From a phage: a DNA stretch of 64,000 bases. A model generated the notes under the pieces. It had not been told where the DNA came from, made no database searches, and saw only the letters and a program-made list of their open reading frames with translations. Of the stretch, positions 1 to 59,337 are shown in pieces. The stretch is from the sequence record PX068454.1. One strand, given 5' to 3'. How positions within the stretch are numbered: position 1 is the stretch's first letter; each line of letters starts with the position of its first letter. The translations under genes and the position numbers were made by a program.

Positions 1-788
1 TCCACGCAGATTGCAGGGTAATCGGTCAATGTCTCCAGGAACTTGGAGCGGTAAGGTTGGTGACCCATCACAACACGGCTCTCATCAGAACTGGTATAAC
101 CTTTCAGGATGGTCATTTTCCAGCCATCCTTCTCGTAATGATACTGTGCCTCAACCTTGTCACCTTCTAACATCTTACTGGTCATGGGATCGGTGACAGT
201 GAACGGAAATTTTGCATAGCGCAGGCATGATGCAATAGCGGTGCGATATTTCAGAACATGCTCTTTCTTAACATGAAACTGAACTTTTACCCCGTTGTGC
301 TCTTCAGTCTTCCGCTCACGGATCTTGGTGACATTTGGGATACCCTGGTCCAAGAACAATAGGTATGTGCTTTCCACACCGTTGTGCACACTGATTACAT
401 CGAAAGTGTCCACCATGCTGAACGGGGCCTTTGAACCAACACCTTTATTGCCTACCAGAGCGTTGCTGTTGCGCTTGGTCGACTCACCGAGGTTCATGAA
501 AGTGTTACGGACCATCTCTTCTGACATGCCTAATCCAACGTCCTGCACAAAGAAGTATGGTTCAAGGTCTGTAGGAGAGTGAATGATGATCGGTACATCA
601 CCTCGTCCAGACTCAACATGTGAGTCCACAGCATTGAAGATCGGTTCACGGCAGCTTGCCAGTACCTTATCTTCATAAATCCCTTTGATGATTAGCCCAA
701 AAGTCTCTTTGTTCAGAGAAATTGATCCCCTGGTTACCTCCATATTCCCAGTTAGCACCGCTTTAGTTTCATTGCTGTTTACAATCAT
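1..788 (-). CDS. rIIA: rIIA-like GHKL (Bergerat-fold) ATPase, N-terminal 262 codons only; 3' end lies beyond the window start
   Basis: Minus-strand frame open from ATG at 788-786 to position 1 (absent from ORF track because the stop is off-window); SD AAGGAG upstream; motifs REPIFNAVDS (N box), DVGLGMSEE (G1), GNKGVGSKAPFSMVDTF (G2) resemble T4 rIIA N-terminus as I recall it; start overlaps upstream stop (ATGA). Confidence 0.6.
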   Translation of the reverse strand, partial: MIVNSNETKAVLTGNMEVTRGSISLNKETFGLIIKGIYEDKVLASCREPIFNAVDSHVESGRGDVPIIIHSPTDLEPYFFVQDVGLGMSEEMVRNTFMNLGESTKRNSNALVGNKGVGSKAPFSMVDTFDVISVHNGVESTYLLFLDQGIPNVTKIRERKTEEHNGVKVQFHVKKEHVLKYRTAIASCLRYAKFPFTVTDPMTSKMLEGDKVEAQYHYEKDGWKMTILKGYTSSDESRVVMGHQPYRSKFLETLTDYPAICV

Positions 789-1285
789 TTATTGCGCTCC
801 TTGTAGTAGATATGGCTCCCGAATTGAGCTGTCCTCTGCATCTTTTTTGCCCATTTCGGTCGTACTTTTGTTGTATGGTAGTGTGTTGCTCCGCCTGTTA
901 TATCCATAGCCATGTATGCAACATGGTTGTTATTATAGACCTTTAGAAGCATCTTTGCAAGACTTTTAGCGTGATCCCATGAATCTTTTTCTGTCACCTT
1001 AAAAGTTTTGCCGTGGTTTGTCCACGAAAACTGGTTAGGTTGGTAGACAATCTTTCTTATAGTGTCTGGGTATTTGGGGTGAGATTTCCTGTTTAGTGTG
1101 GCAAATCCGGATGCCAGCATACCCATCGTGCCATCCCCTCTAGCCTCCCTGTAGATATTGCATGCTAGAATGTTTTCCTTAGTATCCGACGGCTTGCAAG
1201 TGTGATATACTTTTTGTTTTGGTGCTGCAACAACAGGCAGCGATAAAAATGCGCTCAAAATAATAGCAAAGATTTTAATTTTCAC
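785..1285 (-). CDS. SleB-type cell-wall hydrolase (Hydrolase_2-like) with N-terminal Sec signal peptide
   Basis: N-terminus MKIKIFAIILSAFLSLPVVAAP is signal-peptide-like; NIYREARGDG...QPNQFS...GGATHYHT...FGSHIYY matches SleB/CwlJ family motifs. Confidence 0.7.
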   Translation of the reverse strand: MKIKIFAIILSAFLSLPVVAAPKQKVYHTCKPSDTKENILACNIYREARGDGTMGMLASGFATLNRKSHPKYPDTIRKIVYQPNQFSWTNHGKTFKVTEKDSWDHAKSLAKMLLKVYNNNHVAYMAMDITGGATHYHTTKVRPKWAKKMQRTAQFGSHIYYKERNK

Positions 1286-1289
1286 AATA

Positions 1290-1321
1290 ACTCCAAATAG
1301 AAAATCCCCGCCGAAGCGGGG
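1290..1321 (-). terminator. rho-independent terminator, UUCG-tetraloop hairpin
   Basis: CCCCGCCGAAGCGGGG perfect hairpin followed on minus strand by T-rich tract; just downstream of stop of 1335..1715. Confidence 0.6.
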
Positions 1322-1334
1322 TGTGTCTTAGAAA

Positions 1335-1715
1335 TTAATCGTAGTGTGCCAAAATCTCTCCATCGTTGCAAGTCCCCTCTACGAAGTTGTGAAGATTCAT
1401 GCATTCATCTTGATAGAAGAATTTACCGCTTTTCAGCCGTAGACCAAACAACTCCGCATCTCCACGATGGCAAGCCTCTACAAGTTCATAGATTTCATAC
1501 GGTAATTCCCCATCGTCATGGAAGAACCCCGCTTTATCGTTGACATAGATGAAGAAATAGTCACTGCTGTCGCAAGCGTCCAGTATTTTAAACCAGATTT
1601 CATCCACATCTTTTTCTCGGATATCGATCACACAAGTGGAGCTGCATTCGTACTCCTTCTCCGGCTCCTCGGTCAATACCACCAAGTAGTTTCCCCGCTT
1701 ACCTACTTTAGCCAT
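1335..1715 (-). CDS. hypothetical protein
   Basis: 126-aa ORF, co-directional, followed by terminator. Confidence 0.55.
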   Translation of the reverse strand: MAKVGKRGNYLVVLTEEPEKEYECSSTCVIDIREKDVDEIWFKILDACDSSDYFFIYVNDKAGFFHDDGELPYEIYELVEACHRGDAELFGLRLKSGKFFYQDECMNLHNFVEGTCNDGEILAHYD

Positions 1716-1724
1716 ACAACCTCC

Positions 1725-2909
1725 TCAAGCTTTAGCTAAAATGGCGCTAAACTCTTCACCAAACTCTTTTACAATCTTCATCAGGTTTGGGTATGCTTTG
1801 ATCAGCTGAGCAACGATCTTGTCCCTGCCTTTACCAATAAGTAAGGCATTTCCTAAGGCGTTAGGTTTCATCATCGCCATAAAGACTGAGAATACAAAGT
1901 CTCGGTTCTCATCCTTGAAATTTTCCCAAAGGAAATCAAGGAAGTTTGCCACACAGCTGACGAGATCTTCGTCGGAGATACTTGCATTTTCCATCATATT
2001 ACGAATAGCGATACAACCTTCAGACCCCAGAATCCACAAGATGTCTGGCTGCTTAGGACCTACATATTCTTTGCAGCCTCCTGCCATAATCCGACCGATT
2101 TCTGGCAAGTTTCGTTTCTTGGTGTGGTAGGTCCAAATTTCTACCGCTGCAGTGTGACCAATGGCACCTTGTAGAAGGACACGGGCCATAGCGTCAGAAA
2201 TAATACCGCTGTCAAAATCGTGCAAGATGTCAGATGCAGCAACCCAAGAGCGCGGTGTAGCAAAAGATGGACAATTAATCTCAGCCATGGCCTCATAATT
2301 ATCGATGGCCGATGGGACTCTTTTCAGATATCCAATTACCGAGGAGTGCACCCCATTAAGGAATGCATAGTCCTCAATAAACACCTCTGCACTGCTTGTA
2401 ACTTCTACAATGATAAAGCGGTTAGCTAGAGGAGCTTCGAGTGCCGAAAGAACAGCACCGTCTGTAGCACGGTTACCTGCAGCTACAAAAACAGAGCCTT
2501 TAGGAAATGCATAGGTGCCGCACTTGTGGTCGAGCATAATTTGCATTGCAACCTTCTGCAGGTAGTTATCTGCATGAGTAAGCTCGTCTAGAAAGATAAT
2601 TCCGCTCCAGTCCGGATCTGCAGGCCAAAATTCTGGAATTGCAAACACTGTACGTGTAGTTCCATCTGCCTCCACAGGGATAGGCAGTCCAGATAAGTCA
2701 GCAGGATCTTTATCTGACAACCGCACGTCAACCAGGTTGTCATCTCGCTCACCGAACATATTATCAGCAATCTGCTTCATCACCTGGCTCTTCCCCACGC
2801 CCATCGGTCCTAAAATCAGGACAGATCGGTTATGACGCTGGGCAAATTGAACAATGGCTGGCAACTCGCGGACAGTGATTTGACCACTTTCGAATACGTT
2901 TCTCGACAT
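1725..2909 (-). CDS. MoxR-like AAA+ ATPase (AAA_5 type)
   Basis: Walker A GPMGVGKS, Walker B IIFLDELTHA, arginine-containing sensor region AAGNRATDG; 394 aa. Confidence 0.8.
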   Translation of the reverse strand: MSRNVFESGQITVRELPAIVQFAQRHNRSVLILGPMGVGKSQVMKQIADNMFGERDDNLVDVRLSDKDPADLSGLPIPVEADGTTRTVFAIPEFWPADPDWSGIIFLDELTHADNYLQKVAMQIMLDHKCGTYAFPKGSVFVAAGNRATDGAVLSALEAPLANRFIIVEVTSSAEVFIEDYAFLNGVHSSVIGYLKRVPSAIDNYEAMAEINCPSFATPRSWVAASDILHDFDSGIISDAMARVLLQGAIGHTAAVEIWTYHTKKRNLPEIGRIMAGGCKEYVGPKQPDILWILGSEGCIAIRNMMENASISDEDLVSCVANFLDFLWENFKDENRDFVFSVFMAMMKPNALGNALLIGKGRDKIVAQLIKAYPNLMKIVKEFGEEFSAILAKA

Positions 2910-3178
2910 TAGTAAAAGTCCTCTACTTGTGTGTAAGTGTTTTCAAAGTTTTCCAAAACAGACATCACATCGGATCTGTCAATATCATACGCAACTCTCC
3001 AGCCATATGCAACCCTTTCTGCTGTTGCCTCTTCTGGCGCTAGTCGTCTGCTGGCATAAAAGAGTGTTGGAGTACACTTTCTTGCTTGCCCTCTAACTTT
3101 CCCATAATAATATCTGTGAATATCTTTGTCAAAATTTAATTCTTTTTCTGCACGAAGTTCGTACTGCTGGTATAACAT
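2909..3178 (-). CDS. hypothetical protein
   Basis: 89-aa ORF abutting MoxR gene. Confidence 0.45.
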   Translation of the reverse strand: MLYQQYELRAEKELNFDKDIHRYYYGKVRGQARKCTPTLFYASRRLAPEEATAERVAYGWRVAYDIDRSDVMSVLENFENTYTQVEDFY

Positions 3179-3222
3179 CTCTACTGCTCCTTAAGCAGCA
3201 TCCTTGCTGCCATCCATACCCA

Positions 3223-3603
3223 CTAAAATGCAGTCCGAATCCAGACAAGGTTCTTATCCGCCCAATCATAGAGGCAAGTCATTGCACTATTGAATTGCTC
3301 ACACGGAGGATAATCTTCTTCCATCTTGCGCATAGCAGAGCCTTGTGGGTAAAGCTCCCGTGCTGCAAACCACGCGTCGTAGTCATCAACGGTATCGAAG
3401 TAGTATACAACATCCTCCAACTCAGGATCGAACTTTGAACTATCAGGATCCAGCTGTTCAGGGAACTTGGAGCGTAACTTGCCAGCCACAATACTTGCCA
3501 ACTCGCTAACATGCTTGTTGTCCCACTCTACCAGTTTCCCGTCTTCAGTTATGCGTCCTAACCACTGATCATGAAGGTCAACTGTTGTCTTCCACTGGGC
3601 CAT
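3223..3603 (-). CDS. hypothetical protein
   Basis: 126-aa ORF in minus-strand early operon. Confidence 0.55.
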   Translation of the reverse strand: MAQWKTTVDLHDQWLGRITEDGKLVEWDNKHVSELASIVAGKLRSKFPEQLDPDSSKFDPELEDVVYYFDTVDDYDAWFAARELYPQGSAMRKMEEDYPPCEQFNSAMTCLYDWADKNLVWIRTAF

Positions 3604-3605
3604 TA

Positions 3606-3857
3606 TCAGTCTACCTCTTCTTCTCGTTGCAGTTCAAGATACCCATAGGTCTGGATATCTTCAAGGGTGTGGAACTCTCCATCTGCTGCTAAGGCACGGA
3701 CAACCTGGCATAGAGTTTTATAAGGTACTTTCTCCAAACCCAGATTCAGCGCAGGAAAAAACTTATCTAAGTCAACAAAATATACAAACTGTAGCTCACC
3801 AGTTTCAAAAGGCGTATCTTCGATAAACATCTTCTCGGCATTAGTCAAGATCTGCAC
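3606..3857 (-). CDS. hypothetical protein
   Basis: 83-aa ORF, tight spacing to neighbours. Confidence 0.5.
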   Translation of the reverse strand: MQILTNAEKMFIEDTPFETGELQFVYFVDLDKFFPALNLGLEKVPYKTLCQVVRALAADGEFHTLEDIQTYGYLELQREEEVD

Positions 3858-3862
3858 TTTTA

Positions 3863-4219
3863 TTATTCTACCCCCTCTTCTTTTTCTTCAGCATTAGTTT
3901 CAGTGCTACCCCACTCTGGAGTTTCCACCTCGATAGTGAACTCACGCACTACACGGTAATTGCCCATGAAGCGCTCCACTTCTTCAAGGCTTATGGAGAG
4001 GCCATTGGCAACCAAATCTGCAGCACCCTTCTCTACCAGGTAGTCCAGATTGGCTTCCAAGGCTTCAGGCTCAAACCCTGTCAATGCAATCATATAACCT
4101 TCCCCTTCATCAAGGAGGGCAATACAGCCCAACTGATTTTCTTTAAAAAAGCAGTGACCATCACTATTGATTGGTTGCTCATTGCAGTAAATAGCTGCAC
4201 GATAAGTAACTTTAGACAT
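3863..4219 (-). CDS. hypothetical acidic protein
   Basis: 118-aa ORF, acidic C-terminus. Confidence 0.55.
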   Translation of the reverse strand: MSKVTYRAAIYCNEQPINSDGHCFFKENQLGCIALLDEGEGYMIALTGFEPEALEANLDYLVEKGAADLVANGLSISLEEVERFMGNYRVVREFTIEVETPEWGSTETNAEEKEEGVE

Positions 4220-4231
4220 TGGTAGGCCTCC

Positions 4232-4510
4232 TTAGGCAACTGTCATTTTACATTCTTGAAATTTTAGCACAAGACGGTGATTGTGTCTAGTGTCTAAAAA
4301 GATTTTTTCAACCATCAGGCACACGGTGTAACCGTCCATCTTGTTGACAACAAAATCCTCAGGGTGAGGGAGAATGTCCCCAGGATTGGGGAAACATAAC
4401 CCGCTCAAGAAGGCATCATCGGTGGTGGACCTGATGGATTTCCACACACTATCTGCCTGGACACTCTCACCAACATAATATACACTACCACATGCCTTCA
4501 TCATAGTCAA
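4232..4510 (-). CDS. hypothetical protein
   Basis: 92-aa ORF, overlaps upstream gene by 4 nt. Confidence 0.5.
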   Translation of the reverse strand: MTMMKACGSVYYVGESVQADSVWKSIRSTTDDAFLSGLCFPNPGDILPHPEDFVVNKMDGYTVCLMVEKIFLDTRHNHRLVLKFQECKMTVA

Positions 4511-5406
4511 ATCTCCGCGTAAATTAAACTGGAATCAGTATACTTCTTTAGTGGGTAAATATCCTGTCCATAGATGCCGTCATTAAACACCTCATCTACC
4601 CAAAGGCTACACTTATATCCCATCATCTCTAAAACACCCATCTCTTCTTCGGTAAACTTATCACCGCTCTTGCAAGATGTCAACACCTCATTCTGTACTC
4701 TTGCTACCTCGAAGCGATTATTGGCAATATCGCTATTAGCGATCAAATACTCACCCAAAGGGTGTGCGGCATTAAAGATGCACAGTGGACGGTTGACGTA
4801 ATAGTCTCCAGGTGTATAAAAATTATTGAGGTCTTTCACTAGAACATTCTTATCAGTCACTTCATTTATAACATCATGCATATCGCACATCTTTATATGT
4901 TTGAGGATTCCATCCCCCATCACAAAATAAAAACTTGCTGAAACACTTTCGGCATAGATCTTACTAGATCCGTTGTAGTTGTATTTTACTCGGATGCTAA
5001 CGGGGGTTTTTCCTGTCGCGTTAGCCATCATCCAAAGAAATGGCAGCTCATACTTCTCCTCTGAGGAAACAAAAGGTGAAGTAGCCAGAGATCGAAAACC
5101 TCCAGAGAAGTTGAAAGTTACAGAACCGCTCCGGCGGTATGATACTGCGTATTCTACTTTTATATCAACGTATCCGTTGGAGTAAGTATGCCCTCCATTA
5201 TCAAGGTATGTCCACTTATCAGACCCGGATACCAACCTCCGCTCAATTACCTTCATCACCATAGGAATTAGCGGATTAGTACAAACCGATCTTGAAGTAG
5301 CTTTATCATCCAAAGCCTCGTAAATTGCAGAAAGGATATCTCCAGCTGAAAGATTGGTTGTTATATCCTGTTGCCACCTGGTGCTAAAACTGTTAAGATT
5401 TGCCAT
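4507..5406 (-). CDS. hypothetical protein, first gene of minus-strand early operon
   Basis: 299-aa ORF; SD AGGAG 8 nt before ATG at 5406; promoter immediately upstream. Confidence 0.65.
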   Translation of the reverse strand: MANLNSFSTRWQQDITTNLSAGDILSAIYEALDDKATSRSVCTNPLIPMVMKVIERRLVSGSDKWTYLDNGGHTYSNGYVDIKVEYAVSYRRSGSVTFNFSGGFRSLATSPFVSSEEKYELPFLWMMANATGKTPVSIRVKYNYNGSSKIYAESVSASFYFVMGDGILKHIKMCDMHDVINEVTDKNVLVKDLNNFYTPGDYYVNRPLCIFNAAHPLGEYLIANSDIANNRFEVARVQNEVLTSCKSGDKFTEEEMGVLEMMGYKCSLWVDEVFNDGIYGQDIYPLKKYTDSSLIYAEI

Positions 5407-5445
5407 GAATAAGTGCTCCTATGTTAGTTTTCTTTCGAATGGGTG

Positions 5446-5475
5446 CACTATATCGGAGATTTAGAGTAAAGTCAA
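5446..5475 (-). promoter_or_regulatory. sigma70-like promoter (minus strand): TTGACT - 17 nt - TATAGT
   Basis: Read on minus strand: TTGACT ttactctaaatctccga TATAGT, about 40 nt upstream of ATG at 5406. Confidence 0.6.
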
Positions 5476-5488
5476 CACGTTTTTGAGG

Positions 5489-5517
5489 TTGACATCTCCC
5501 CAGGCTCTTGGTAAGAT
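5489..5517 (+). promoter_or_regulatory. sigma70-like promoter (plus strand): TTGACA - 17 nt - TAAGAT, A/T-rich upstream
   Basis: TTGACA at 5489-5494, TAAGAT at 5512-5517; -35 hexamers of the two divergent promoters form inverted repeat GTCAAC/GTTGAC 13 bp apart. Confidence 0.6.
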
Positions 5518-5548
5518 TTCTCCACCCACAGAGAACAAGAGACAACTC

Positions 5549-6538
5549 ATGAATCTTGAAAAATATTATACACCAGAAGAGTTAGAGCGCTTGCTCAAAA
5601 AATACAGACGCAAACAGAATAACGCACGGAAACGGGATATAGAGTTCAACCTGTCATGGGAAGAATATCTCCTATTTGGTAAAAAACTTTTAGGAGAGGG
5701 AGTATGCGACTATACCCTTATACCTTTCGACATGCACACAGATGAAAACGGACTGGGAAATCCTTTCTACCCATCTCTGGAGCGGATAGATGATGAAGGT
5801 CCTTATGCGGTTGATAATTGTTGTGTGGTGGGATTGAGATGCAACTCCCTAAAGGACTGCCTGGTAGATAAAAAGACCGCAGTCTTGATTAAAGACAAAA
5901 CTGATCGAAAAATTGTCCAGCAGATGATGCTCCACCTGAGCGAAGAGCGTATGGAGAAATTGAAAGGTGATTACACTTTTGAAGATTTCATCTTGCAATA
6001 TGGAACGGAAGAGGATAAACTGGCACTCTTTGACGAAGAATGGGAGGAAGATATGTCACCAATGCAGGATTTTAAAAACTTCATGGCTAATCGTGGAGCC
6101 AACAAGCACATTTCTGACATTGTAAACGAGCCTGTAGTAGAGGAGATTGAAGAGATGACGCAACAGGCTTACGAAGAGGAAAAAGAGCCTCAAGGGGTCG
6201 AAGAAGAGCTTACAGAAGAGGTTCCTGCACTGCCTGACGATGTTGAGATTGCCAAAGCTTACACTTTCTATTGCCAGACGTTCTACGATGCAGGTATGAA
6301 AGTTGATCTGTCCTTCAGCCAGTTTAAGAGCACATACATTCGAAAATGTTGTGCTTTAACTGGTGAGCGTCTCGGGGCCGGACTTAAACCACTATTAGTT
6401 ACCGACTGGAACAAAGGTTTCACCAAAGGTAACTTCATGGTAGTATCTCCAATCATGGAAAAGGCTATGACAGACCTTATGAAGACCACTCGCATGACAA
6501 TGACCGAGTTGGCTGGTATTTTCAAGCACGTTAAATAA
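5549..6538 (+). CDS. early protein with internal duplication and central acidic linker; function unknown
   Basis: ORF-track start 5483 lies upstream of the promoter -35, so start moved to in-frame ATG 5549; N-terminal segment (FNLSWEEY...GEGVCDY...) and C-terminal segment (DLSFSQF...CCALTGERLG...) look like repeats flanking an E/D-rich linker. Confidence 0.55.
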   Translation: MNLEKYYTPEELERLLKKYRRKQNNARKRDIEFNLSWEEYLLFGKKLLGEGVCDYTLIPFDMHTDENGLGNPFYPSLERIDDEGPYAVDNCCVVGLRCNSLKDCLVDKKTAVLIKDKTDRKIVQQMMLHLSEERMEKLKGDYTFEDFILQYGTEEDKLALFDEEWEEDMSPMQDFKNFMANRGANKHISDIVNEPVVEEIEEMTQQAYEEEKEPQGVEEELTEEVPALPDDVEIAKAYTFYCQTFYDAGMKVDLSFSQFKSTYIRKCCALTGERLGAGLKPLLVTDWNKGFTKGNFMVVSPIMEKAMTDLMKTTRMTMTELAGIFKHVK

Positions 6539-6542
6539 TGAC

Positions 6543-20037: not shown

Positions 20038-20304
20038 TTAAGCTTTTTGCTCTTCGTTTTTAACGTGGTCAGGGTGCTGGCAACCCCACCGGAGCGAGAT
20101 GAATTTGCTAATAAGCTGGGGGCAAGCTACCGAAGGTGCGTATATCCACGCATACCATTCAGGAAGCGTATCATTATACCCCATATGAATAAACACCCCA
20201 GTCATCACTGCCATGCCTATGTTTGACCATAGCTTAGATTGGGACACTTTCGTAGGGTCATCAGATGCCGCAACCAACCCCCATAAAAACTGAGTTAATT
20301 TCAT
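20038..20304 (-). CDS. small hydrophobic protein (membrane or fibre-assembly candidate)
   Basis: 88-aa ORF with hydrophobic segment NIGMAVMTGVFIHMG. Confidence 0.45.
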   Translation of the reverse strand: MKLTQFLWGLVAASDDPTKVSQSKLWSNIGMAVMTGVFIHMGYNDTLPEWYAWIYAPSVACPQLISKFISLRWGCQHPDHVKNEEQKA

Positions 20305-21447: not shown

Positions 21448-21762
21448 TTACCTTTTACTATGCTCTACAAGCATGTGTAAAATCTTTTGCACATCAGCTC
21501 TGATACCGGAGACATCTGTCCTGACATCTTGCTTAAGGTCGTTAATATCGGCCTCTAGCTTACTTAACCGGGTCTCGATAATGGAATCAAGTCTATCTTT
21601 TGTAACCATGCTATTTTTCACTAAAATGAGGTCTTTCTCCAGCTCATCCAACCTCTTGGAAATGCCTTTCCATTTGGTGTGCCACTGGTTGAAAGCCCAT
21701 ACACAGATCGGGACAACGGTACCCATGCAGATACCGTACAATGCCGCCAAATCCAACTCCAC
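21448..21762 (-). CDS. membrane-anchored coiled-coil protein
   Basis: 104 aa, N-terminal hydrophobic helix LYGICMGTVVPICVWAF then heptad-rich region. Confidence 0.5.
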   Translation of the reverse strand: MELDLAALYGICMGTVVPICVWAFNQWHTKWKGISKRLDELEKDLILVKNSMVTKDRLDSIIETRLSKLEADINDLKQDVRTDVSGIRADVQKILHMLVEHSKR

Positions 21763-30700: not shown

Positions 30701-31630
30701 TTTGTCAAACGAGGCTTCCGGATAGATCTTAACCTCACCACAGACACAGTCCTCACTCAGTGTCATTGTTGCCGGACCATAATATGCACCTACCAGCAGT
30801 CCATACTTACCAGCTACATAGCTGAGATCTGCACCACAAGCTTTCAGCATTTCTGCCATAATACTTGCTGGGGCCTCATCCATATCGAACTCGCCATTAA
30901 TGGTGTAACGGCGCTCACTAGTTCCGTCCGCGTTTCTTACCGCCTCATCGCATATGTTAGCAGCCTCCTTGAAGGACTCCCAGTTGATGGTTTCGTCAGG
31001 ACATTTAAGGTACGTTCTTAAATAGTCTAGAATCACCAAGGCCGCGTTATTGGTATACACCTCTTTACTGATACGAGGATCATAGCATTTTTTACCAACC
31101 TTGACGAGTGTAACGTTTGGCAACCCAAAAGGGAACTTGTTAGGGTCAAACCTGAAGCTGGCACGTAGCCAACTGATCCCTCTACCTATCATGTCTGGTG
31201 ACCACGACGGGCAGTGTGTACCCATGAAAGGATCAGATGTTTTTCTGTCGTTATGTAGCTCCCACGATATCAAATCTCCATACGAGGAAATAGGATTACC
31301 GTCGATGAGTATATCTTCTATACCTTCCAGGGGATGATTGGCAAGAACAATAGCACAATGGAGGGTCCTGTCCCTGTCCTGCTCCAAAAACGCAAGTAAT
31401 CCAGATGTGCGTGTCTTCCCATACACTACAGAGCAAGGTGCAGCAGAAGATCTGAGAAGCTTTTGTCTATCTTGCTGACTTCTGTAAGATTTGTTGCCCT
31501 CAAAAATCTTATCCAGAGTTCTGGTGGTAACAGTGTTCAGGCTGTCAGCCAGAGCTGCCTTGGATGCGTTCCAGTCATAACTTGAAGATCTTGCAGAAGC
31601 AACGATGTTATCAATCATTGCAATTGGCAT
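27791..31630 (-). CDS. central tail fibre / host-specificity J-like protein with coiled-coil repeat region
   Basis: 1279 aa; N-terminal region resembles tip-attachment J-type proteins; tandem repeats LDGK...TNKAT.DLLN; C-terminal G(T/S)FRG repeats. Confidence 0.7.
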   Translation of the reverse strand: MPIAMIDNIVASARSSSYDWNASKAALADSLNTVTTRTLDKIFEGNKSYRSQQDRQKLLRSSAAPCSVVYGKTRTSGLLAFLEQDRDRTLHCAIVLANHPLEGIEDILIDGNPISSYGDLISWELHNDRKTSDPFMGTHCPSWSPDMIGRGISWLRASFRFDPNKFPFGLPNVTLVKVGKKCYDPRISKEVYTNNAALVILDYLRTYLKCPDETINWESFKEAANICDEAVRNADGTSERRYTINGEFDMDEAPASIMAEMLKACGADLSYVAGKYGLLVGAYYGPATMTLSEDCVCGEVKIYPEASFDKRSNTITGRFTSPTKGYSETDFPSVFVPEWIEKDGERKIIDIDYRFVTSPYQAQRVSAIFLRRARAGRIIEVTCNMRGFKFKPGRYVTMNLPSIGIVGQEMRVLEWEFTKKGGVKVKLRQDAKEWNDATGQLPDSGDVDIPISPSGVAQPQNFRYSVLQAGEVTHGVLAWDNVGTYAQNIVQVRKNGEIVWTAQTVEQFVRVEGLTKGSYTATVVATSYKGGVSPEAYCEFNIQAPEAPVSVEVKQGYFAITLIPHSRDLASVSTQYDFWTSGMTRLPDTSDATVTSEATRMGVGSTWTSEGLQNDKVYYWYIRTTNAFGSSQFVECAARCYTSIEDLMPQIDAEFKKTETYKELMSTLDSSIEEVENRVTELNRYMDGRVDEAFQQLGDRIGAVVTETTQKFEDVNGNITALDRKLVAAQNKFTNDLNTESGRLASLIETTNKATADLLNKKTEALDEKLVAAKGELVEQIEGVESGYLAGDKTLDGKINTQRTELDASILSTNQATVDLLNRTSETLDQKISQTNATVSKNYTTLDGKITTAKTDLNTLIANTNKATTDLLNQKTSALSEQITSARGEISTNKQAIDALDGKLTSTKTALDATISDTNKATVDLINGTASAIRQELAVAKQEIIDDVGDVSEIRAAVATTSKAVTDLEGKVNAQWGTKIQVDSAGNKYVAGIQLGMEGSGGQVQSYFMVSANNFAVYNPGNGTATLAFAIKNNQAFLKDAFIENGTISSAKIAQEISSNNYDGNGYHKYGWYINKNGHAQFMDVWVKGNINASAGNFTGAVNATSGTFRGDVYANNGSFRGTIDATGGTFRGRVEASVIRANQFEGAIVAHRTYGDCAPVYNSQQRVCRWRWRYVDNVSGQGKNVTFFFKLNGTLASSQLNVWIAGHQILAGKKYGNDNNGMCAVGITGLGEQTIDIIVEIYTPWSTSSVTGVTISCPTVIVSRSNSSFQGPWNESHD
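28825..29473 (-). repeat. in-frame tandem repeats encoding about four coiled-coil units of roughly 50 aa
   Basis: Protein residues about 720-935 of the J-like gene; DNA shows matching periodic similarity. Confidence 0.5.
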
Positions 31631-32067
31631 TAATACCTCCAGACATCAACAACAATAGAATCTTTCATGTCGAACATAAAGACCCCTTTATCACCTTTCG
31701 CCCAAATCTGGTTGTTCCAGAACACACCCGCGGTGAGTCCGTTCAGTCCTTCGAAAATAACAATATCCCCACGCTGAACCTGTTTAGGAGTGTCCAGTCG
31801 AGTCATAAAGAAATCAAAAATAGTAGGCAGGTGTGTGGTTTTGAAATGAAGCATGCACCATCTCTTGCTTTCCAACTCTGTTTTATACGTTCCTTCGAAG
31901 TTAGAAAGAAAATCTGTTCCGTATTGGGCATCAACACACTTAGCCGCAAAGGTGCAACAATCGTGGAATCCCCATTCAAAAGGTATGGTGGCCTCTTCGT
32001 CAAACACTTTCCACAACCTTTCTTGCCAGTCCACTAGACGAGGATGTGTGCTCATTAAACCTCCCAA
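31630..32067 (-). CDS. tail assembly protein, possible papain-like (NlpC/P60-type) fold
   Basis: 145 aa; GFHDCCTF candidate catalytic Cys, later His residues; immediately upstream of J-like gene. Confidence 0.4.
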   Translation of the reverse strand: MGGLMSTHPRLVDWQERLWKVFDEEATIPFEWGFHDCCTFAAKCVDAQYGTDFLSNFEGTYKTELESKRWCMLHFKTTHLPTIFDFFMTRLDTPKQVQRGDIVIFEGLNGLTAGVFWNNQIWAKGDKGVFMFDMKDSIVVDVWRY

Positions 32068-41140: not shown

Positions 41141-41818
41141 TTAGTGCGGTCCACTTGTCTCGCCATCAGGGCAAGAGTGGGTATGACCTTTATATTCTGC
41201 ATAGAATGAATCCAAATCCACACCAGCAGCAGTTATAATTCTACCAGATGGGTCTATTGTGGCACCATTCATTCTGATATTTCCATCCACAGCAGCTCGC
41301 AAATTGGCAGCACCGTTAGTGAAAGAAAACTCCCCGCTGCTGTCGCACCGTAATGTCCCACCCGGTGTTTGAAGCTCAAAATCTCCAGAAGGTGTCAGTT
41401 TAAAATAGACCTTATCATTCCATAACTCTACGTTATCAGGATCGATCTGTAAAGCGTTTGAGTCTGAATGAACAGAGGTTATTGCCCACCCCGGAAACAG
41501 ACCGTGAGTTTGTTGATCGTCGTTATTGTTTTCATTTCTCTCTGAAAACTGCAATCCTACAACATCTCCAGCCTTAATAGGGAGTGTTAACCTTGCCTTT
41601 CCGCTGTTTGCAGACATCACCTGAATTGGAACGTCATAGATAAGAGGGTATCTCTCTACATCCCCGTCATCAAACGTGGTTTCAGCAATTGGCTGCACGG
41701 CTGCAGAAGGGATACTGTAGTCTACACTGACAACTCTGGCCCTGATACTGGTGTGATAGTCCCTCATTATTTTTTCTATGAAGGATCTTACAGCAGCATC
41801 TTTCCTATTTATTGCCAT
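41141..41818 (-). CDS. baseplate spike protein (P2 gpV / Mu gp45-like)
   Basis: 225 aa; C-terminal KGHTHSCPDGETSGP resembles the HTH...PGG.T..P tip motif. Confidence 0.55.
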   Translation of the reverse strand: MAINRKDAAVRSFIEKIMRDYHTSIRARVVSVDYSIPSAAVQPIAETTFDDGDVERYPLIYDVPIQVMSANSGKARLTLPIKAGDVVGLQFSERNENNNDDQQTHGLFPGWAITSVHSDSNALQIDPDNVELWNDKVYFKLTPSGDFELQTPGGTLRCDSSGEFSFTNGAANLRAAVDGNIRMNGATIDPSGRIITAAGVDLDSFYAEYKGHTHSCPDGETSGPH

Positions 41819-53526: not shown

Positions 53527-53574
53527 TTATTTCTCCAAAGTAAAACTTAAATATTTTCCCGAACAATTTAGGGC

Positions 53575-53964
53575 TTACTCTTCACCAAGAGTCTGGACGT
53601 GAACTTTGTTACCCAGAGCTTCCAGCTTTTCAAGAACAGCCTGCTTAGCTGCTTCACCGTTAGACCCCAGCAGCTTATCTTTTGCAAAGGTAACACCGTG
53701 AACTGCAACAACCAGTTTATATTTCTGACCTGTTTGCAGAGGCTCAGCTAGATGAACTTTTCCTGCATCTTTTACCAGAGCTCGGTCTACAAGAACACCA
53801 TAAACATCTGAGCCATCATCGTTAGCGATAGTGCCAGTTTTTGTTACAACAGTACCAGCATGATGGTGCTCTGTCAGTGTAATTTCCATCTCTTTAAAAT
53901 TGTAGCCAGCATCGCTAGAATCAACTTTGCCGAGCACGATATCAGAATATTGAGCGGTAATCAT
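53575..53964 (-). CDS. putative head decoration or capsid-associated protein
   Basis: 129 aa between scaffold-like and capsid genes (lambda D position); position-based. Confidence 0.4.
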   Translation of the reverse strand: MITAQYSDIVLGKVDSSDAGYNFKEMEITLTEHHHAGTVVTKTGTIANDDGSDVYGVLVDRALVKDAGKVHLAEPLQTGQKYKLVVAVHGVTFAKDKLLGSNGEAAKQAVLEKLEALGNKVHVQTLGEE

Positions 53965-53984
53965 TTATTTCCCCCGTTAATGTC

Positions 53985-54962
53985 TTATTTAGTAGATTCT
54001 GCACGTGCACGAGCAAGTGCTTTTGCAACGTTTTCAGCAAGAATTTCTTCTGCGGATTTTGCAATATCATCCACAACAGGTTCGCCATCATTACCATGTT
54101 CAGTGGTGGCAAACTCTTCTTTGGTTTTATGCACCTCTGCTTCCAGCTCTTTAATTTTGGCTTGAGCTTTCTCCAGCATAGCTACAATAGGTTCGTTAGC
54201 TTTTTCCAGCATGAAGTCAACCAGGGTTGCATGATCTTCTTCACCAACAAAGCTTAAAGCTTGAGCTTTAGTCAGCATTTTAGCTTTTTCAACTTCAACC
54301 TGGGCCTTGATGATTTCTTCAGCTTTGCTCTGGGTTGCTTTCAGCTCTTCTACTTGCTTCAGCAGATCCAGATACTCTTTAGTTTTGGTTACGTCCACCG
54401 GATTCTCCTCGGTATTTGCGGATTTTGCAACATCATCTACCTCGGTAGTTTTATCCACCTCAGTAGGTTCCTGTACCGCCTTGATCAGGTTCCCTTCTTT
54501 ATCGAAGAGATCAGCGGTTACTTGTTCAAAAATCTGTTGTGTTTTTAACAGGCTGTACTGATCTACCACACTAAGCTGCTTGCCTTCTTTTGCAGCTTTA
54601 TGAATGGTCACGTTATCACAACGCTCTTCCAGCCATGCAATGCAAGACTCTGCGTCAGCTTGCGCCCATTCCCAATCAGGATGCTCTTTAGCCCAAGCTT
54701 CCTCTTCAATCTCAAAACCAAGCATGTGTGCGAGTGCTTTGGCATCGTCATACCACATATCGAAGAAACGACGCAGGTATTCTTCAAAACTCAGCTCCAC
54801 AGTAACTTGGCGAAGTGCCTTAACAATATCGTCTGTTAACTGCTCAGGCTGAAGATCACTCTTCATCAAAAGAGATACAGGTCTGTTGTTAGCGCTATAG
54901 CCTTGCGCCTTATGGCACAGGGCAATCCCCTTCTCTTTAATAGTGATTGTTTTTTCAGACAT
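53985..54962 (-). CDS. putative scaffolding protein
   Basis: 325 aa, E/K/A-rich coiled-coil composition, between portal and capsid. Confidence 0.5.
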   Translation of the reverse strand: MSEKTITIKEKGIALCHKAQGYSANNRPVSLLMKSDLQPEQLTDDIVKALRQVTVELSFEEYLRRFFDMWYDDAKALAHMLGFEIEEEAWAKEHPDWEWAQADAESCIAWLEERCDNVTIHKAAKEGKQLSVVDQYSLLKTQQIFEQVTADLFDKEGNLIKAVQEPTEVDKTTEVDDVAKSANTEENPVDVTKTKEYLDLLKQVEELKATQSKAEEIIKAQVEVEKAKMLTKAQALSFVGEEDHATLVDFMLEKANEPIVAMLEKAQAKIKELEAEVHKTKEEFATTEHGNDGEPVVDDIAKSAEEILAENVAKALARARAESTK

Positions 54963-55393
54963 TATTCATTGCCCTCTTCTACAACACTGATCCCGAAATT
55001 TACGTTGGTAATTTCGCCCGTCTCTTCATCAACATTGCCTGTTGCCTGAATGCTTAGGCCACCAACAATGCCAGCCTTCTTAGCTTCCCATAATTCAGGA
55101 TTATTGTATTTAACTTTAGCAACCCAAGAGCCAGCCTTGATGACCTGCTCAGTACCAATTACTACAACATCAAACTCTTCTTGAATCCACGTCTTTTCAA
55201 TAGTGAAAGCATCTGTAGAGGTCAAGTGGAAAAGGTTTTCAGAAACTAGGCCTGCGGCGTATGCTGCGTCCCAATTATCTTTAGCCTTTTTGATGGTGTC
55301 TTTACTCATCCACTCACCGTGAGCGTCTTTAGTGTCCGGTTCGTAGATGATTTCGTAGGAAATCATTTCTTCCTGTGGCATATTATTCCCCAT
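54962..55393 (-). CDS. hypothetical head-assembly protein; start uncertain
   Basis: ORF-track version (to 55537) overlaps portal C-terminus; first ATGs after portal stop are 55393 and 55381; no clear SD. Confidence 0.4.
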   Translation of the reverse strand: MGNNMPQEEMISYEIIYEPDTKDAHGEWMSKDTIKKAKDNWDAAYAAGLVSENLFHLTSTDAFTIEKTWIQEEFDVVVIGTEQVIKAGSWVAKVKYNNPELWEAKKAGIVGGLSIQATGNVDEETGEITNVNFGISVVEEGNE

Positions 55394-55448
55394 GTGGATT
55401 ATTTTATCACGCCAAAGGAGGTTTTGCAACCCCCTGTGTTGATAATTT

Positions 55449-57005
55449 TTAATTTTCCATGTTGGATATGGAATTATCTCTGGTTGATGACATCTTAGAA
55501 GTGCCGTTGCCAGTGGATCCTGCAGCCATACCATCACCAGCCCTGCTGATATCCTGGCCCAAAAGCTTCATCAGCTCTTCTTGATCCATGTCTTCGTCAA
55601 ATCTTTCATCAAACCCGCCTACTTCAAGAATCTTATTAATTACTGCAGGAGTTTTTGGCAAGTAACCTACAGCACCGATCCTCTGGACAAACTTGGAGAA
55701 GCTCTCCATGTCCACTTCTTCAATCAGACCAGGTTTCAGTTTAGGCATATCATCATCTTCAAGGATGATACCATTCAATGCCAGAAGCTGTGGAATAAGA
55801 TCTTTATTGAAGGCCTCAGTGATAATATCTATATCACGCTGAACAAAATGCCCATGGATGGATTGTTTTGACTCAGACAGAGAGAAGGACCCAACGTTAT
55901 CGTTACCAAGGTTAATAAAGCCAGCACCGAAACGGTCAAGAATCGCCTTCTTACGGGCATCAATCAAATCTTTAGTGGAATACTGCTTACCCATACCATC
56001 AACCCCCTTCAGGGTCATGGAGTAAAGCTCTTTACCAGACTTATCTCTATCAGACGGAAGTATAAAGAAACTTTGCTCCCCACTATGGGCGTTTGCTGCG
56101 TCCAACATAAGATCTGCAACCATTCTCCCTTCCATCGAATTCGGGTCAATGCTGGCCTTGTTCAAAATATTGGAAGGAATTTTCAGCTCAAGCACACCAC
56201 CAAGGTCTTTGGAGCAGCCAACAACCTCAAGGTTTTCAATCAAAACTTTCTCACGGAAAGATCTGTAGCAACCTATCATCGGTGACACACCTGCAGGATT
56301 AGATTCTGTTCCTGACAGAGTCATGAGCATAAGCTTTTTAGCAGGGATGAAAATTTCAGGCTCATTAAAGCCTTTTGAAGGCATTGCAGCGAGAGGTCCA
56401 GCCCAGCGTGCATTCTGAGTGTTTAGAAATGCATTAGGTGACTGATAAATACCTGTCAGTGTTCTGCTATTCTTGTCAAAGACAAACGGCTCTGATCTGG
56501 ACAAACTGGCCTGTGGTCGGAATGCAATTTTATCAATAAGAAGCATCCCGGCATATTTACCTTCTTTCTCTCTGCGGTATACTTTCTCAAACAGTGAAAA
56601 ACCATACTCGTTAAAGGTAGCTGCGCTTCTTGCAATATCTCGAAGAGTTTGTTGGTTTGCCAAATTACGCAAAGAATACTCTATAAGCTCGGCGGCTTTC
56701 TTAGAGTCTTCACTTTTAACATTATAAAGGATCTTAAAATCATTGAATGCTTTCGTGATGAAAACATATTTTGTATCTAAGGCAGTAGCAACTGTGGAAT
56801 CACATTTCATAGTCTCCACTGTGGCAATCAGCTGAGGCCAACGCAATTCCTCAACCATCATAGATTGTGATTCTGCCATAATTTGGGAAAGTGCGCCAGA
56901 ACCGATCTCACTCATACGAACATTATGAGTTGGTGCGCCTGCGTTCCCAGATTTATTCACAGTTTTGGCTGTGGCGTTGTGTTTCCTGCGGTTCTTTTTG
57001 GACAC
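55449..57005 (-). CDS. portal protein
   Basis: 518 aa immediately downstream of large terminase; acidic C-terminus. Confidence 0.6.
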   Translation of the reverse strand: MSKKNRRKHNATAKTVNKSGNAGAPTHNVRMSEIGSGALSQIMAESQSMMVEELRWPQLIATVETMKCDSTVATALDTKYVFITKAFNDFKILYNVKSEDSKKAAELIEYSLRNLANQQTLRDIARSAATFNEYGFSLFEKVYRREKEGKYAGMLLIDKIAFRPQASLSRSEPFVFDKNSRTLTGIYQSPNAFLNTQNARWAGPLAAMPSKGFNEPEIFIPAKKLMLMTLSGTESNPAGVSPMIGCYRSFREKVLIENLEVVGCSKDLGGVLELKIPSNILNKASIDPNSMEGRMVADLMLDAANAHSGEQSFFILPSDRDKSGKELYSMTLKGVDGMGKQYSTKDLIDARKKAILDRFGAGFINLGNDNVGSFSLSESKQSIHGHFVQRDIDIITEAFNKDLIPQLLALNGIILEDDDMPKLKPGLIEEVDMESFSKFVQRIGAVGYLPKTPAVINKILEVGGFDERFDEDMDQEELMKLLGQDISRAGDGMAAGSTGNGTSKMSSTRDNSISNMEN

Positions 57006-57020
57006 AAGCTTTACCCCTCA

Positions 57021-57057
57021 AAACAGTATAACAAAATAGCCCTCTGACACGAGGGCT
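57021..57057 (-). terminator. hairpin plus T-tract between terminase and portal (attenuator or processing site)
   Basis: AGCCCTC(TGACAC)GAGGGCT stem followed by ATTTTGTTAT on minus strand. Confidence 0.4.
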
Positions 57058-57107
57058 AGTATCTCCGATTACTCTATTCTACCACATCTAATTAAGATTG
57101 GCAACAC

Positions 57108-58655
57108 TTAGATAAAACGCTTGAACATAGAAGGTGATGAGATTGATGGAATCACACAAGGCAGCGCTACCTCCTCTTTCTCCAGGAAATTAATCGCAGA
57201 AGCTACACAGTCGGCCCAGTCGTCTTTTCTGTTAAATGTTGATCTTTCCCCGTTGAACTTTTCAAGTTCAGTTAGAAATGCTTCCAGAGTGTCAGGATGG
57301 AAACTGGATTTTACAATCCTCACCATTCCTTGTTGGGCAAGATTGGCAAAGGGTGAGAACCTTGTCAGTTTAGATTTGTTGGAAGGCATTGGATCTTCTT
57401 CAACCCTGAACCCTTCGGCGAGCAAGGATCTGGACGAGGTTAAGAACTCGCTCTTACCTGCCTGACCGGGGTCCACAGAAAATACGATTATGCAATCATC
57501 TCCATCAAACTGCGCCTGTTTCCTGATGATCACATCTCGTTCCCCAGCCTTTTTACAGAACTTTCCTTCCAGACCTGTGGAATACCTACCGTCATCCACG
57601 TTCTCAGGACAATAATCCCCGGACAGGTAATAAAAGCCGTCGCTATCTTTACTTACCTTAACACTGGCGGTAAAGTCAGGAAATTTATTACCGGAAGTTC
57701 TCTCGGTTCCTGCTTTATCCCATGCCCTGCAAGATACTGATCCAAGAGGTACTCTATCGGCATCACGAAGGAAAGATCTTTGGAAATAGTTTGCACCTTC
57801 AGGTTTGGCAAACCAGTTGCCATGAAGAAGCTGGGCTTTTTCAAGCTCGGGTAGACCTTCAAGGAAAGCAAGGTATTCTGGGTTATCCCTCAAGCATACA
57901 GGATTATCGAAAATTGTTGCGCCTATAAACGAGAATGACAACGGTCTTGGCTTGATTTCCACACCCAGTCCATTGACCGTGGTGTATTTCTCTATCAACT
58001 CTTCTTTAGAGTCTCCCCAGATAAATTCACCGTCGCGTCGGATAAAATATCTTTTCTTACCACATTTCTCCGGATCTGGATACCCTTCATCGTCCAACCA
58101 CCACCTAACCAGTTTGGCAAGCATGTGTTCTGAGTCGGGGTTACAGCTGATAACCATTCTTGACGGATATTTTGACTGAGATCGCAGACGCGACATCAAA
58201 TAGTCTATCTGCTCCCATTCGAACTGTGTTCCCTCATCGAAGCAAACCATGGTATACTCAAGCCCTTGATGGTTGAGCTTATCTTGGACATATTCCATGT
58301 GACAGTATTTTACAACAGCGCCTTTTTTGCTCCTGTCCCACTTACCGGTGCTCGGATCAAACCGTGGAAAAATAAATTTATGATCCTTCTCTCTGAATTT
58401 TGGTTTGATGTTCTCAGGGAGATCGCTGTAGATAGCCACTGCTTTAGGCCATAGGCCTCCTTCACCCTCCAGCTGCGGGGTTGTTCTTCGGAACATAACC
58501 ACAGAGCTGTGCGGGTCATCAATAATTTTAAGCGGCATCAGCTGCAGGAGGAACGACTTACCTGATCCCGCTGCACCACCAATGACAAGAATGTCTGCAT
58601 CGTTTTCAAGGATCATCTTCTGCTTTTCAGAACACGGTCCGTAAATCTTAGACAT
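57108..58655 (-). CDS. terminase large subunit
   Basis: Walker A GGAAGSGKS, Walker B MVCFDE, C-terminal nuclease-like IVFSVDPG; 515 aa. Confidence 0.85.
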   Translation of the reverse strand: MSKIYGPCSEKQKMILENDADILVIGGAAGSGKSFLLQLMPLKIIDDPHSSVVMFRRTTPQLEGEGGLWPKAVAIYSDLPENIKPKFREKDHKFIFPRFDPSTGKWDRSKKGAVVKYCHMEYVQDKLNHQGLEYTMVCFDEGTQFEWEQIDYLMSRLRSQSKYPSRMVISCNPDSEHMLAKLVRWWLDDEGYPDPEKCGKKRYFIRRDGEFIWGDSKEELIEKYTTVNGLGVEIKPRPLSFSFIGATIFDNPVCLRDNPEYLAFLEGLPELEKAQLLHGNWFAKPEGANYFQRSFLRDADRVPLGSVSCRAWDKAGTERTSGNKFPDFTASVKVSKDSDGFYYLSGDYCPENVDDGRYSTGLEGKFCKKAGERDVIIRKQAQFDGDDCIIVFSVDPGQAGKSEFLTSSRSLLAEGFRVEEDPMPSNKSKLTRFSPFANLAQQGMVRIVKSSFHPDTLEAFLTELEKFNGERSTFNRKDDWADCVASAINFLEKEEVALPCVIPSISSPSMFKRFI

Positions 58656-58942
58656 TAACCTCTCTCCTTTGGAAACAGTGTTCTAATATAGTCTTGCAAA
58701 ATGATCAATTTAGCCCTATCATTACTGCAAGACAGGTTATTATCCCTCATAATGCCAGAATTCACCGCATCAGGCGCACCTTTCTTTAAAGGTATAGCTT
58801 TAGCAGGAGGCTTCATAGCACCTTCGGGCGGTTTAACAATCAATCTTCCCACATCCGGAGGATCAATCTTATATTCTTTTTCGACACTTGTCGCACATCC
58901 GCACAGCAGCAAGCAAGTAACTAACAATACGGCGGCTCTCAT
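58655..58942 (-). CDS. o-spanin (outer-membrane lipoprotein, Rz1-like)
   Basis: Lipobox-like LLLCGC, proline-rich mature region, C-terminus KERG like lambda Rz1 SERG; TAATG overlap with terminase start. Confidence 0.7.
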   Translation of the reverse strand: MRAAVLLVTCLLLCGCATSVEKEYKIDPPDVGRLIVKPPEGAMKPPAKAIPLKKGAPDAVNSGIMRDNNLSCSNDRAKLIILQDYIRTLFPKERG

Positions 58943-59337
58943 CTACCCTCCTGATTAATGCTCTCGTTATAAATATCTATAAGCTGGTCAGGTAGTGTTG
59001 ACTTCTTACCCTCAGGCGACTGAAGGTAGATAATCTGCTTTTCTTTACCTGCCATCTTAGCTGCCTCCAGCTTATCCTGTAAGTCAGAAAGGGATTTTTC
59101 AAGGTTTTTCACCTCCTCGGCATGTCCCATTTTAATCCTGTCGGCTCGCTTTTGTTGCTGGTCAAGGATCTGCTCCCACTTCAACTCTGTTGCTGTTACA
59201 CCTTCCTGATAAGCAGCGTTAAGCTTAGAGTTAAACCAATACACGGCCCCCAGGTATGCTGTGCCTAGAGCAGCTGCAAAAACTAAACCTTTTATGATCC
59301 CTCTATACCTACTCAGCCATGTTAAAAATGAAATCAT
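58939..59337 (-). CDS. i-spanin (inner-membrane, Rz-like)
   Basis: N-terminal TM helix GLVFAAALGTAYLGAVYWF then coiled coil; ATGA overlap with o-spanin. Confidence 0.65.
   Translation of the reverse strand: MISFLTWLSRYRGIIKGLVFAAALGTAYLGAVYWFNSKLNAAYQEGVTATELKWEQILDQQQKRADRIKMGHAEEVKNLEKSLSDLQDKLEAAKMAGKEKQIIYLQSPEGKKSTLPDQLIDIYNESINQEGR

Follow-up and report, generated by a model that had tools for sequence, protein, structure and literature searches.

We examined the lysis genes of a phage in a stretch of 64,000 nucleotides (nt) from sequence record PX068454.1 (here called the window), in which a gene for an exported SleB-type peptidoglycan hydrolase overlaps rIIA near the left end and a pair of spanin genes adjoins the large terminase gene terL near the right end. 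Megablast searches revealed ∼125 GenBank records of Vequintavirus (rV5/FV3-like) myoviruses of Escherichia coli that matched both window ends at 90 to 98% identity. The best GenBank match to the window was S127 BCL3, followed by B9-1, ECP26, and FV3, and identities to S127 BCL3, ECP26, FV3, and other Vequintavirus genomes were between 95 and 98%. Identity to S127 BCL3 was 99.3% over the final 1 kb of the window and 95.8% over its first 1 kb. Window position 1 is equivalent to position 1196 of FV3, and the last one, 64000, falls on position 4841 of the S127 BCL3 locus L004. Judged by this identity, the DNA comes from an rV5-like (Vequintavirus) phage of E. coli, and the window covers slightly less than half of a genome of ∼136 kb, a genome type that has been annotated and studied repeatedly. 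A previous account made from the letters of this DNA (the sequence-only reading) had described dispersed lysis functions without a recognizable holin. Its features were correctly read, but all of them are already known for rV5-like phages, whose lysis gene set is in print (PMC3606486, PMC6658697, PMC6139136, PMC9728275), and nothing in the window itself is new.

The hydrolase gene (785 to 1285, minus strand) starts with GTG, has a GGAG sequence 7 nt upstream, and codes for a protein of 166 amino acids (aa) that is homologous to rV5 gp2. The protein matched the Pfam family Hydrolase_2 (PF07486) with 70.4 bits (cutoff, 27) and PHROG_938, labeled "endolysin," with an E value of 1.7e-27. It also aligned with the catalytic domain of Bacillus SleB (PDB 4F55; E value, 2.5e-6). 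In this alignment, the Y-x-E-[AS]-R-G motif keeps its catalytic Glu in register: E47 of the phage protein, which was invariant across 8 homologs, pairs with the Glu of the SleB sequence Y-G-E-S-R-G. An AlphaFold model of the hydrolase had a pLDDT of 88, with residues 1 to 20 as the sole low-confidence part (∼51). When this model was used for a fold search against the PDB, the only significant matches were the SleB catalytic domains 4F55 and 4FET (E values of 3e-5 to 2e-4; target-normalized TM-scores of 0.75 to 0.78). The protein is probably a lytic transglycosylase. It shares the catalytic fold and the Glu motif with Bacillus SleB at ∼24% identity and is a member of the SleB fold family, but it is not SleB proper: just a signal peptide and ∼15 residues precede the catalytic domain, the N-terminal peptidoglycan-binding domain of SleB is absent, and the host lacks a cortex with muramic-δ-lactam.

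The signal peptide comprises residues 1 to 20 (MKIKIFAIILSAFLSLPVVA; 1226 to 1285, minus strand), with a predicted signal peptidase I cut between VVA and AP. By inspection, it consists of the n-region MKIK (charge of +2), a hydrophobic h-region of 16 residues (IFAIILSAFLSL), a Pro at position −4, and a V-x-A signature at −3/−1. AXA-type cleavage sites were retained in orthologs of the hydrolase. This tripartite Sec signal with a signal peptidase I site is that of a predicted cleavable signal peptide, as the sequence-only reading had proposed. A signal-arrest-release (SAR) anchor was also considered for this N terminus and was rejected, as the h-region is free of Gly and strongly hydrophobic (Kyte-Doolittle value of ∼2.6) and is directly followed by the AXA site.

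Downstream of the hydrolase gene lies rIIA, of which the N-terminal 262 codons are present (2 to 788, minus strand), the gene being cut by the left end of the window. Its product matched PHROG_612, "RIIA lysis inhibitor" (E value, 1.3e-91), and Pfam HATPase_c_3, which fits the GHKL ATPase-like N-terminal region of T4-type rIIA proteins; in S127 and FV3, rIIA is followed by rIIB, in agreement with this assignment. The stop codon of the hydrolase gene and the ATG of rIIA overlap as ATGA (785 to 788), exactly as the sequence-only reading had reported. Its further reading of the overlaps as translational coupling to rIIA and as a fusion of the spanins to the packaging operon was not supported as anything special. 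In a simple greedy open reading frame (ORF) call, start/stop overlaps of 1 or 4 nt were found in 13 of the 61 same-strand neighboring gene pairs of the window, and 37 of the 61 pairs overlapped or lay no more than 15 nt apart. Moreover, rIIA has its own Shine-Dalgarno sequence (AAGGAG) within the upstream gene, and o-spanin and terL likewise have good ones of their own. Special regulatory coupling was therefore rejected, and the overlaps with rIIA and terL represent ordinary compact packing, because such overlaps are common here and the downstream genes possess their own Shine-Dalgarno sequences.

Directly upstream of the hydrolase gene, we found a GC-rich hairpin with a U-rich tract (1306 to 1321, minus strand; free energy of −17.5 kcal/mol, z score of −3.7), which is the equivalent of the rV5 terminator t003. 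In rV5, t003 is listed in Table S4 upstream of gene 2, and a transcription unit 10-1-238-164 was described (PMC3606486). Situated behind t003, the hydrolase gene opens a unit made up of rIIA, rIIB, helicase, and polymerase/replication genes, with a sigma-70-type promoter at the start of the unit.

At the other end of the window, i-spanin (58939 to 59337, minus strand) codes for a protein of 132 aa that matched PHROG_4297, "Rz-like spanin," over its full length (E value, 5.8e-48). As a predicted type II protein of the inner membrane, it has a single N-terminal transmembrane domain (TMD) at approximately residues 13 to 35, followed by a charged, helical periplasmic domain. The adjacent o-spanin (58655 to 58942, minus strand) codes for 95 aa and matched PHROG_1267, also labeled "Rz-like spanin" (E value, 7e-22). 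Its product carries a lipoprotein signal, MRAAVLLVTCLLLCG directly followed by C16-A17, with the lipobox L13-C14-G15-C16 and a residue other than Asp at +2; the mature part is Pro rich. The two genes overlap as ATGA, and the stop codon of o-spanin overlaps the ATG of terL by one base (TAATG), so that these overlaps, too, had been read correctly. With these features, the pair conforms to the putative i- and o-spanin of separated two-component spanins and falls into the family that Kongari et al. (2018) named rv5, which includes FV3, PVP-SE1, and GAP31. The o-spanin contains one periplasmic cysteine (C72) and the i-spanin none; of the T4 spanins, only the o-spanin cysteines matter, and two are needed (Kongari et al. 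2018). In CB7, rV5, and PVP-SE1, the spanin pair likewise adjoins the large terminase gene and is not located in a lysis cassette (Buttimer et al. 2020, PMC7344957). The large terminase subunit gene itself (57108 to 58655, minus strand) is annotated in relatives and encodes 515 aa in one uninterrupted ORF. In rV5, LL12, and HMD-6, terL is split by introns or the insertion of a homing endonuclease.

The spanin genes and terL are one tightly packed block, and the spanins could plausibly be translated along with the late packaging genes. Upstream of this block, 17 nt ahead of the i-spanin ATG, we noted an intrinsic-terminator-like hairpin (59361 to 59387, minus strand) followed by U6 (59355 to 59360). 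Its stem has 11 bp with one bulge (free energy of −21 kcal/mol, z score of −2.4). This hairpin is missing from the published terminator list of rV5. The hydrolase and the spanin blocks start ∼17 to 20 nt past their hairpins; both would need read-through or an unrecognized promoter. The rV5 late-promoter motif TGGTAAAATA was enriched in the window (19 matches versus 5.8 expected); no match was present upstream of i-spanin, including the interval between the hairpin and the tRNA cluster, and the nearest one was located downstream of terL, before the portal gene.

The sequence-only reading had taken the hydrolase for the only recognizable muralytic enzyme. This applied to the window as far as classical endolysins are concerned, but not beyond its right end: in S127 BCL3, a signal-less lysozyme of the lambda R type is encoded 5,398 nt past window position 64000, and such an enzyme is also encoded in FV3. 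The FV3 protein (FV3_00082) and its S127 counterpart belong to GH104, are 156 to 162 aa long, have no N-terminal signal, and matched lambda lysozyme (PDB 1AM7) with an E value of 1.5e-48. Their identity as lysozymes rests on PDB 1AM7 and PHROG_90; in Pfam, the R-type lysozyme matched no family, even with E values of ≤1 allowed. A tblastn search of the window with lambda R yielded no match, which indicates that the lysozyme lies outside the window and was not overlooked in it. By megablast, the lysozyme gene and the following 68-aa ORF were present in 121 phage records, compared with 125 for the SleB region, and the two sets were essentially the same. The main endolysin of this phage is thus probably, to judge from its relatives, the lambda-type lysozyme ∼5.4 kb beyond the right end of the window. 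In published work on rV5, gp89 was termed "an obvious lysin" and gp2 was listed as a "cell wall hydrolase" (PMC3606486). The ECP26 homolog of the lysozyme, LysECP26, was cloned and purified, was toxic in BL21, acted on Gram-negative cells with permeabilized outer membranes, and lysed 29 of 29 Gram-negative strains tested (PMC9728275). In the FV3 RefSeq record NC_019517.1 (loci L001 and L003), both the SleB-like FV3_00002 and the R-type lysozyme FV3_00082 are labeled "endolysin."

Two further genes of the window bear on wall degradation. A 141-aa protein of the tail module (31630 to 32055, minus strand) matched Pfam DUF6950 (E value, 4e-33) and belongs to a PHROG to which no function has been assigned. 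In phage HMD-6, it is annotated as "cell wall hydrolase protein." This protein may be a virion-associated wall-degrading enzyme rather than part of end-of-cycle lysis and is a caveat, within the window, to the hydrolase being the only muralytic enzyme. The gene annotated as "baseplate spike and tail lysozyme" (41141 to 41818) was rejected as muralytic, as it encodes only the N-terminal baseplate-spike domain and no lysozyme domain.

The window contains no canonical holin-endolysin pair, and none of the membrane proteins tested matched a holin family of Pfam or PHROG, in line with the sequence-only reading. That reading had named a conventional endolysin-holin cassette elsewhere in the genome, together with a nonlytic SleB protein, as findings that would speak against it; of these, a conventional endolysin does occur elsewhere in the relatives, but not within such a cassette. 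The 68-aa protein encoded directly after the R-type lysozyme (10773 to 10979 of L004 in S127 BCL3; 17103 to 17309 of L003 in FV3) contains two cysteines and a single N-terminal segment resembling a signal or an anchor, and it belongs to PHROG_4641 of unknown function. In rV5, its gene has a predicted sigma-70-type promoter of its own, P090. With a single signal-like segment and its own promoter, the protein is not a typical holin. In FV3, a gene for an HNH endonuclease is inserted between the lysozyme gene and the 68-aa gene.

Beyond the window, the protein most often proposed as the holin is gp129 (78 aa, two TMDs, basic C terminus), which was put forward for rV5 in 2013, its gene being set apart from that of the lysin "as in phage T4" (PMC3606486). 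Its homologs in FV3 and S127 are encoded ∼27 kb past the right end of the window beside an ORF of 39 aa with one TMD, and their PHROG is of unknown function. Within the window, two small proteins came into consideration. An 88-aa conserved membrane protein homologous to rV5 gp29 (20038 to 20304, minus strand; PHROG_1322, "membrane protein") was found in 369 phage records and was annotated as a holin in 0 of the 40 records listed. A 104-aa protein homologous to rV5 gp31 (21448 to 21762, minus strand; PHROG_5345, unknown function) has one N-terminal TMD (residues 5 to 23) and a coiled-coil-like tail, is conserved across Vequintavirinae genera, and was annotated as a holin in 0 of the 30 GenBank records listed. 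The 88-aa protein is a putative holin candidate and the 104-aa protein a putative holin or antiholin candidate, both as leads only. When these two proteins and the gp129-like 78-aa, 39/57-aa, and 68-aa proteins of relatives were compared with Pfam and PHROGs, the only matches were to "unknown function" or "membrane protein" families. The 88-aa and 104-aa genes are conserved across the subfamily and are situated within the late tail-fiber cluster, a site that recalls T4 gene t, and some records call their products structural or tail-fiber proteins.

Homologs of the hydrolase were found in at least 569 viral contigs and at least 1161 GenBank phage records. Carriers include T5-like phages, Phapecoctavirus, Justusliebigvirus, and Pakpunavirus, of which at least the T5-like phages and Phapecoctavirus encode another endolysin. 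In the best 80 viral-contig loci, most homologs start with a hydrophobic export segment; some of these segments are clear signal peptides, and many, in marine contigs, are Gly/Ala rich and SAR-like. Export is therefore a trait of the family, because most homologs carry an N-terminal export segment. SleB-like homologs are present in all Vequintavirinae genera, while the second peptidoglycan hydrolase varies in type between members (PMC7344957).

The surroundings of the gene differed between lineages. In Seunavirus (L014, which is identical to GAP31, 4MG, and PVP-SE1), in Mydovirus-like phages (L013), and in a metagenomic relative (L007), the gene for the signal-peptide hydrolase is followed by an ORF coding for two TMDs and then by rIIA and rIIB. 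This two-TMD ORF (approximately 5536 to 5709 in L014, 5536 to 5691 in L013, and 6583 to 6813 in L007) encodes 51 to 76 aa with a basic C terminus and has been left unannotated in many GenBank records. It is plausible that the sister-genus ORF encodes a holin or pinholin, and the comparative note on this often unannotated ORF between the hydrolase gene and rIIA is the small addition made here. The Vequintavirus locus lacks the ORF, since there the start of rIIA lies within the stop codon of the hydrolase gene. Searches elsewhere in Vequintavirus for homologs of the sister-genus ORFs returned only noise (E values of >0.04), nor were the ORFs significantly similar to the gp129-like protein. In the more distant lineage L048, the hydrolase gene, rIIA, and rIIB occur in this order on another downstream backbone, and in Stephanstirmvirinae, the neighbors of the hydrolase gene include no rII gene and no gene for a membrane protein. 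Certrevirus has kept the hydrolase and has no rIIA/rIIB; there, a 65-aa class II holin candidate with two TMDs (CB7_82) overlaps the SleB-like gene (PMC7344957). The SleB-like protein of CB7, CB7_83, bears a signal peptide, its expression in E. coli was toxic (data not shown there), and the CR3 homolog was implicated in lysis (PMC7344957). Because the neighborhood differs by lineage, the link between hydrolase and rIIA is frequent, not obligatory.

We consider it likely that the window and its right flank hold three separate, already described parts of a dispersed, T4-style lysis apparatus: the spanins, the exported hydrolase, and the off-window lysozyme with a putative holin. From the gene identities, signal features, fold, and synteny, and from the lysozyme found off-window, we infer the timing, the control, and the division of labor between the hydrolases as follows. 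The putative holin would permeabilize and depolarize the inner membrane at a programmed time, by which the cytoplasmic R-type lysozyme would be released. The Sec-exported hydrolase, already residing in the periplasm, would add a second muralytic activity after the membrane has been de-energized. Until then, it would presumably be restrained by low expression through terminator read-through, by the energized membrane, or by both, as are other secreted or SAR endolysins. Lysis would end with the spanin pair, which would fuse the inner and outer membranes and thereby disrupt the outer membrane.

Several points weigh against such a scheme. The hydrolase gene sits in an early/replication-type unit, not in a late one, and gp129 is located among small early-region genes. 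Published work contains no validated holin for any member of Vequintavirus. The presence of the hydrolase in every genus, while the other endolysin varies, suggests a nonredundant role that is maybe not end-of-cycle lysis. In addition, the export and activity of the Vequintavirus hydrolase itself are predicted, and the lysozyme of this phage is predicted from relatives that are 95 to 99% identical.

The main alternative is a hydrolase that is not a lysis protein but a periplasmic factor of the early or middle period, produced along with rIIA/rIIB, with lysis brought about by the lysozyme, holin, and spanins only. Possible nonlytic roles are limited remodeling of peptidoglycan, protection against superinfection or lysis from without, and the countering of a host envelope defense. 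The position of the gene behind t003 in the rIIA-rIIB-helicase-polymerase unit with its sigma-70-type promoter would agree with such a role, as would its conservation in every genus of Vequintavirinae even as nonorthologous types took the place of the classical endolysin. Likewise, Stephanstirmvirinae and T5-like phages carry such a hydrolase besides another endolysin and with no holin-like neighbor, and E. coli tolerates several periplasmic lytic transglycosylases. We nevertheless regard this explanation as unlikely, since many phages use this family for their endolysin domain and most homologs resemble signal-peptide or SAR endolysins, since a holin-like two-TMD gene follows the hydrolase gene in three sister genera, and in view of the toxicity of the CB7 homolog and the implication of the CR3 homolog in lysis.

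A quite improbable history is that the hydrolase was the ancestral primary endolysin of the subfamily, acting like a secreted or SAR endolysin and triggered by a pinholin-type depolarizing partner that was moved or lost in Vequintavirus, and that the R-type lysozyme was a later accessory. The order of signal-peptide hydrolase, two-TMD ORF, and rIIA in Seunavirus, Mydovirus, and the metagenomic relative would agree with it, as would the class II holin candidate in Certrevirus, and of the two enzymes it is indeed the hydrolase that is conserved, the other endolysin differing from genus to genus. No homolog of the sister two-TMD protein was detectable anywhere in Vequintavirus, however, and the R-type lysozyme is a strongly muralytic core gene product of the genus. 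Furthermore, the N terminus of the hydrolase looks cleaved and not like a SAR tether, so that pinholin control by release from the membrane would not be directly applicable. We give similarly little credence to the idea that the hydrolase, the two-TMD protein (where present), and rIIA/rIIB form one conserved functional module, in which the rII proteins would help to keep the membrane energized and so hold the exported enzyme inactive up to the lysis signal. That hydrolase and rII genes adjoin in Vequintavirus, Seunavirus, Mydovirus, L007, and L048 would then reflect function and not inherited gene order.

Essentially excluded is the model of the sequence-only reading itself, in which the hydrolase is the sole endolysin, no holin exists, and the coupled rIIA governs lysis timing: inside the window, there is no other classical endolysin and no recognizable holin, the overlap with rIIA is real, and the Hydrolase_2-rIIA-rIIB adjacency recurs in the distant L048, but the apparent replacement of holin gating is an artifact of the window edge, with the signal-less lysozyme only 5.4 kb outside in the closest relative and in 121 related records, the hydrolase persists in Certrevirus without rIIA/rIIB and in Stephanstirmvirinae without an rII neighbor, and rIIA has its own AAGGAG in a genome where such overlaps are generic.

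Relative to known systems, the genes considered here were 93 to 99% identical to those of rV5, FV3, LL12, and ECP26, which share gp2 overlapping rIIA, the spanins abutting terL, t003, and the lack of a validated holin. No functional difference from these phages was apparent; the unsplit terL sets the window apart from rV5 and LL12, as well as from HMD-6. T4 (e, t, pseT.3/pseT.2, rI, rIIA/rIIB) resembles the dispersed T4-style apparatus that we favor in that the endolysin, holin, and separated spanins are scattered in a large myovirus genome, the stop codon of i-spanin overlaps the start of o-spanin, periplasmic cysteines occur only in the o-spanin, and both rIIA and rIIB are present. In contrast to the window phage, T4 has no exported Hydrolase_2 protein, its holin T is known, and spanin genes beside terL are a feature of the window. 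CB7 (CB7_83/CB7_82, Certrevirus), Seunavirus, and Mydovirus have in common with the window an orthologous signal-peptide Hydrolase_2 protein, spanins by terL, and no classic cassette. They differ by the two-TMD ORF that follows or overlaps the hydrolase gene and is absent in Vequintavirus, and Certrevirus further differs by the absence of rIIA/rIIB.

Lys44 of the Oenococcus phage fOg44, Lyz of P1, and R21 of phage 21 with its pinholin S21 are exported in a Sec-dependent, holin-independent manner, which implies control by the energization of the membrane, not by hole size. Compared with these endolysins, the window hydrolase has a cleavable-looking signal, no adjacent pinholin gene, and a coexisting cytoplasmic endolysin (in relatives). 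Why all genera keep a Sec-exported hydrolase of the SleB fold in an early-type operon, often next to rIIA/rIIB and a two-TMD gene, while they swap the classical endolysin, is a question of modest interest; its answer could show how the secreted endolysins of phages of Gram-negative hosts are restrained and perhaps what rII does. Also of modest interest is the lack of a validated holin in this group of phages, which is widely used in therapy and biocontrol.

Some observations concern the records and genes surrounding these loci. Under the name "Campylobacter phage," GenBank contains 16 to 23 records (MG065682, MG065646, MG065658, MG065659, and others) that were 95 to 100% identical to the Vequintavirus of the window; they are probably mislabeled or stem from contaminated lysates. 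Besides the two "endolysin" labels, NC_019517.1 contains doubtful names, such as "DNA methyltransferase" for a prohead protease-like gene and "HNH endonuclease" for a so-called anti-sigma factor. To the right of the spanin block, a tRNA cluster (59759 to 60571, minus strand) gave seven calls (Pro, Met, Thr, Ser, Tyr, and Arg), with one aberrant call at 60004 to 60102 that has a four-base anticodon, and relatives annotate differing subsets of this cluster.

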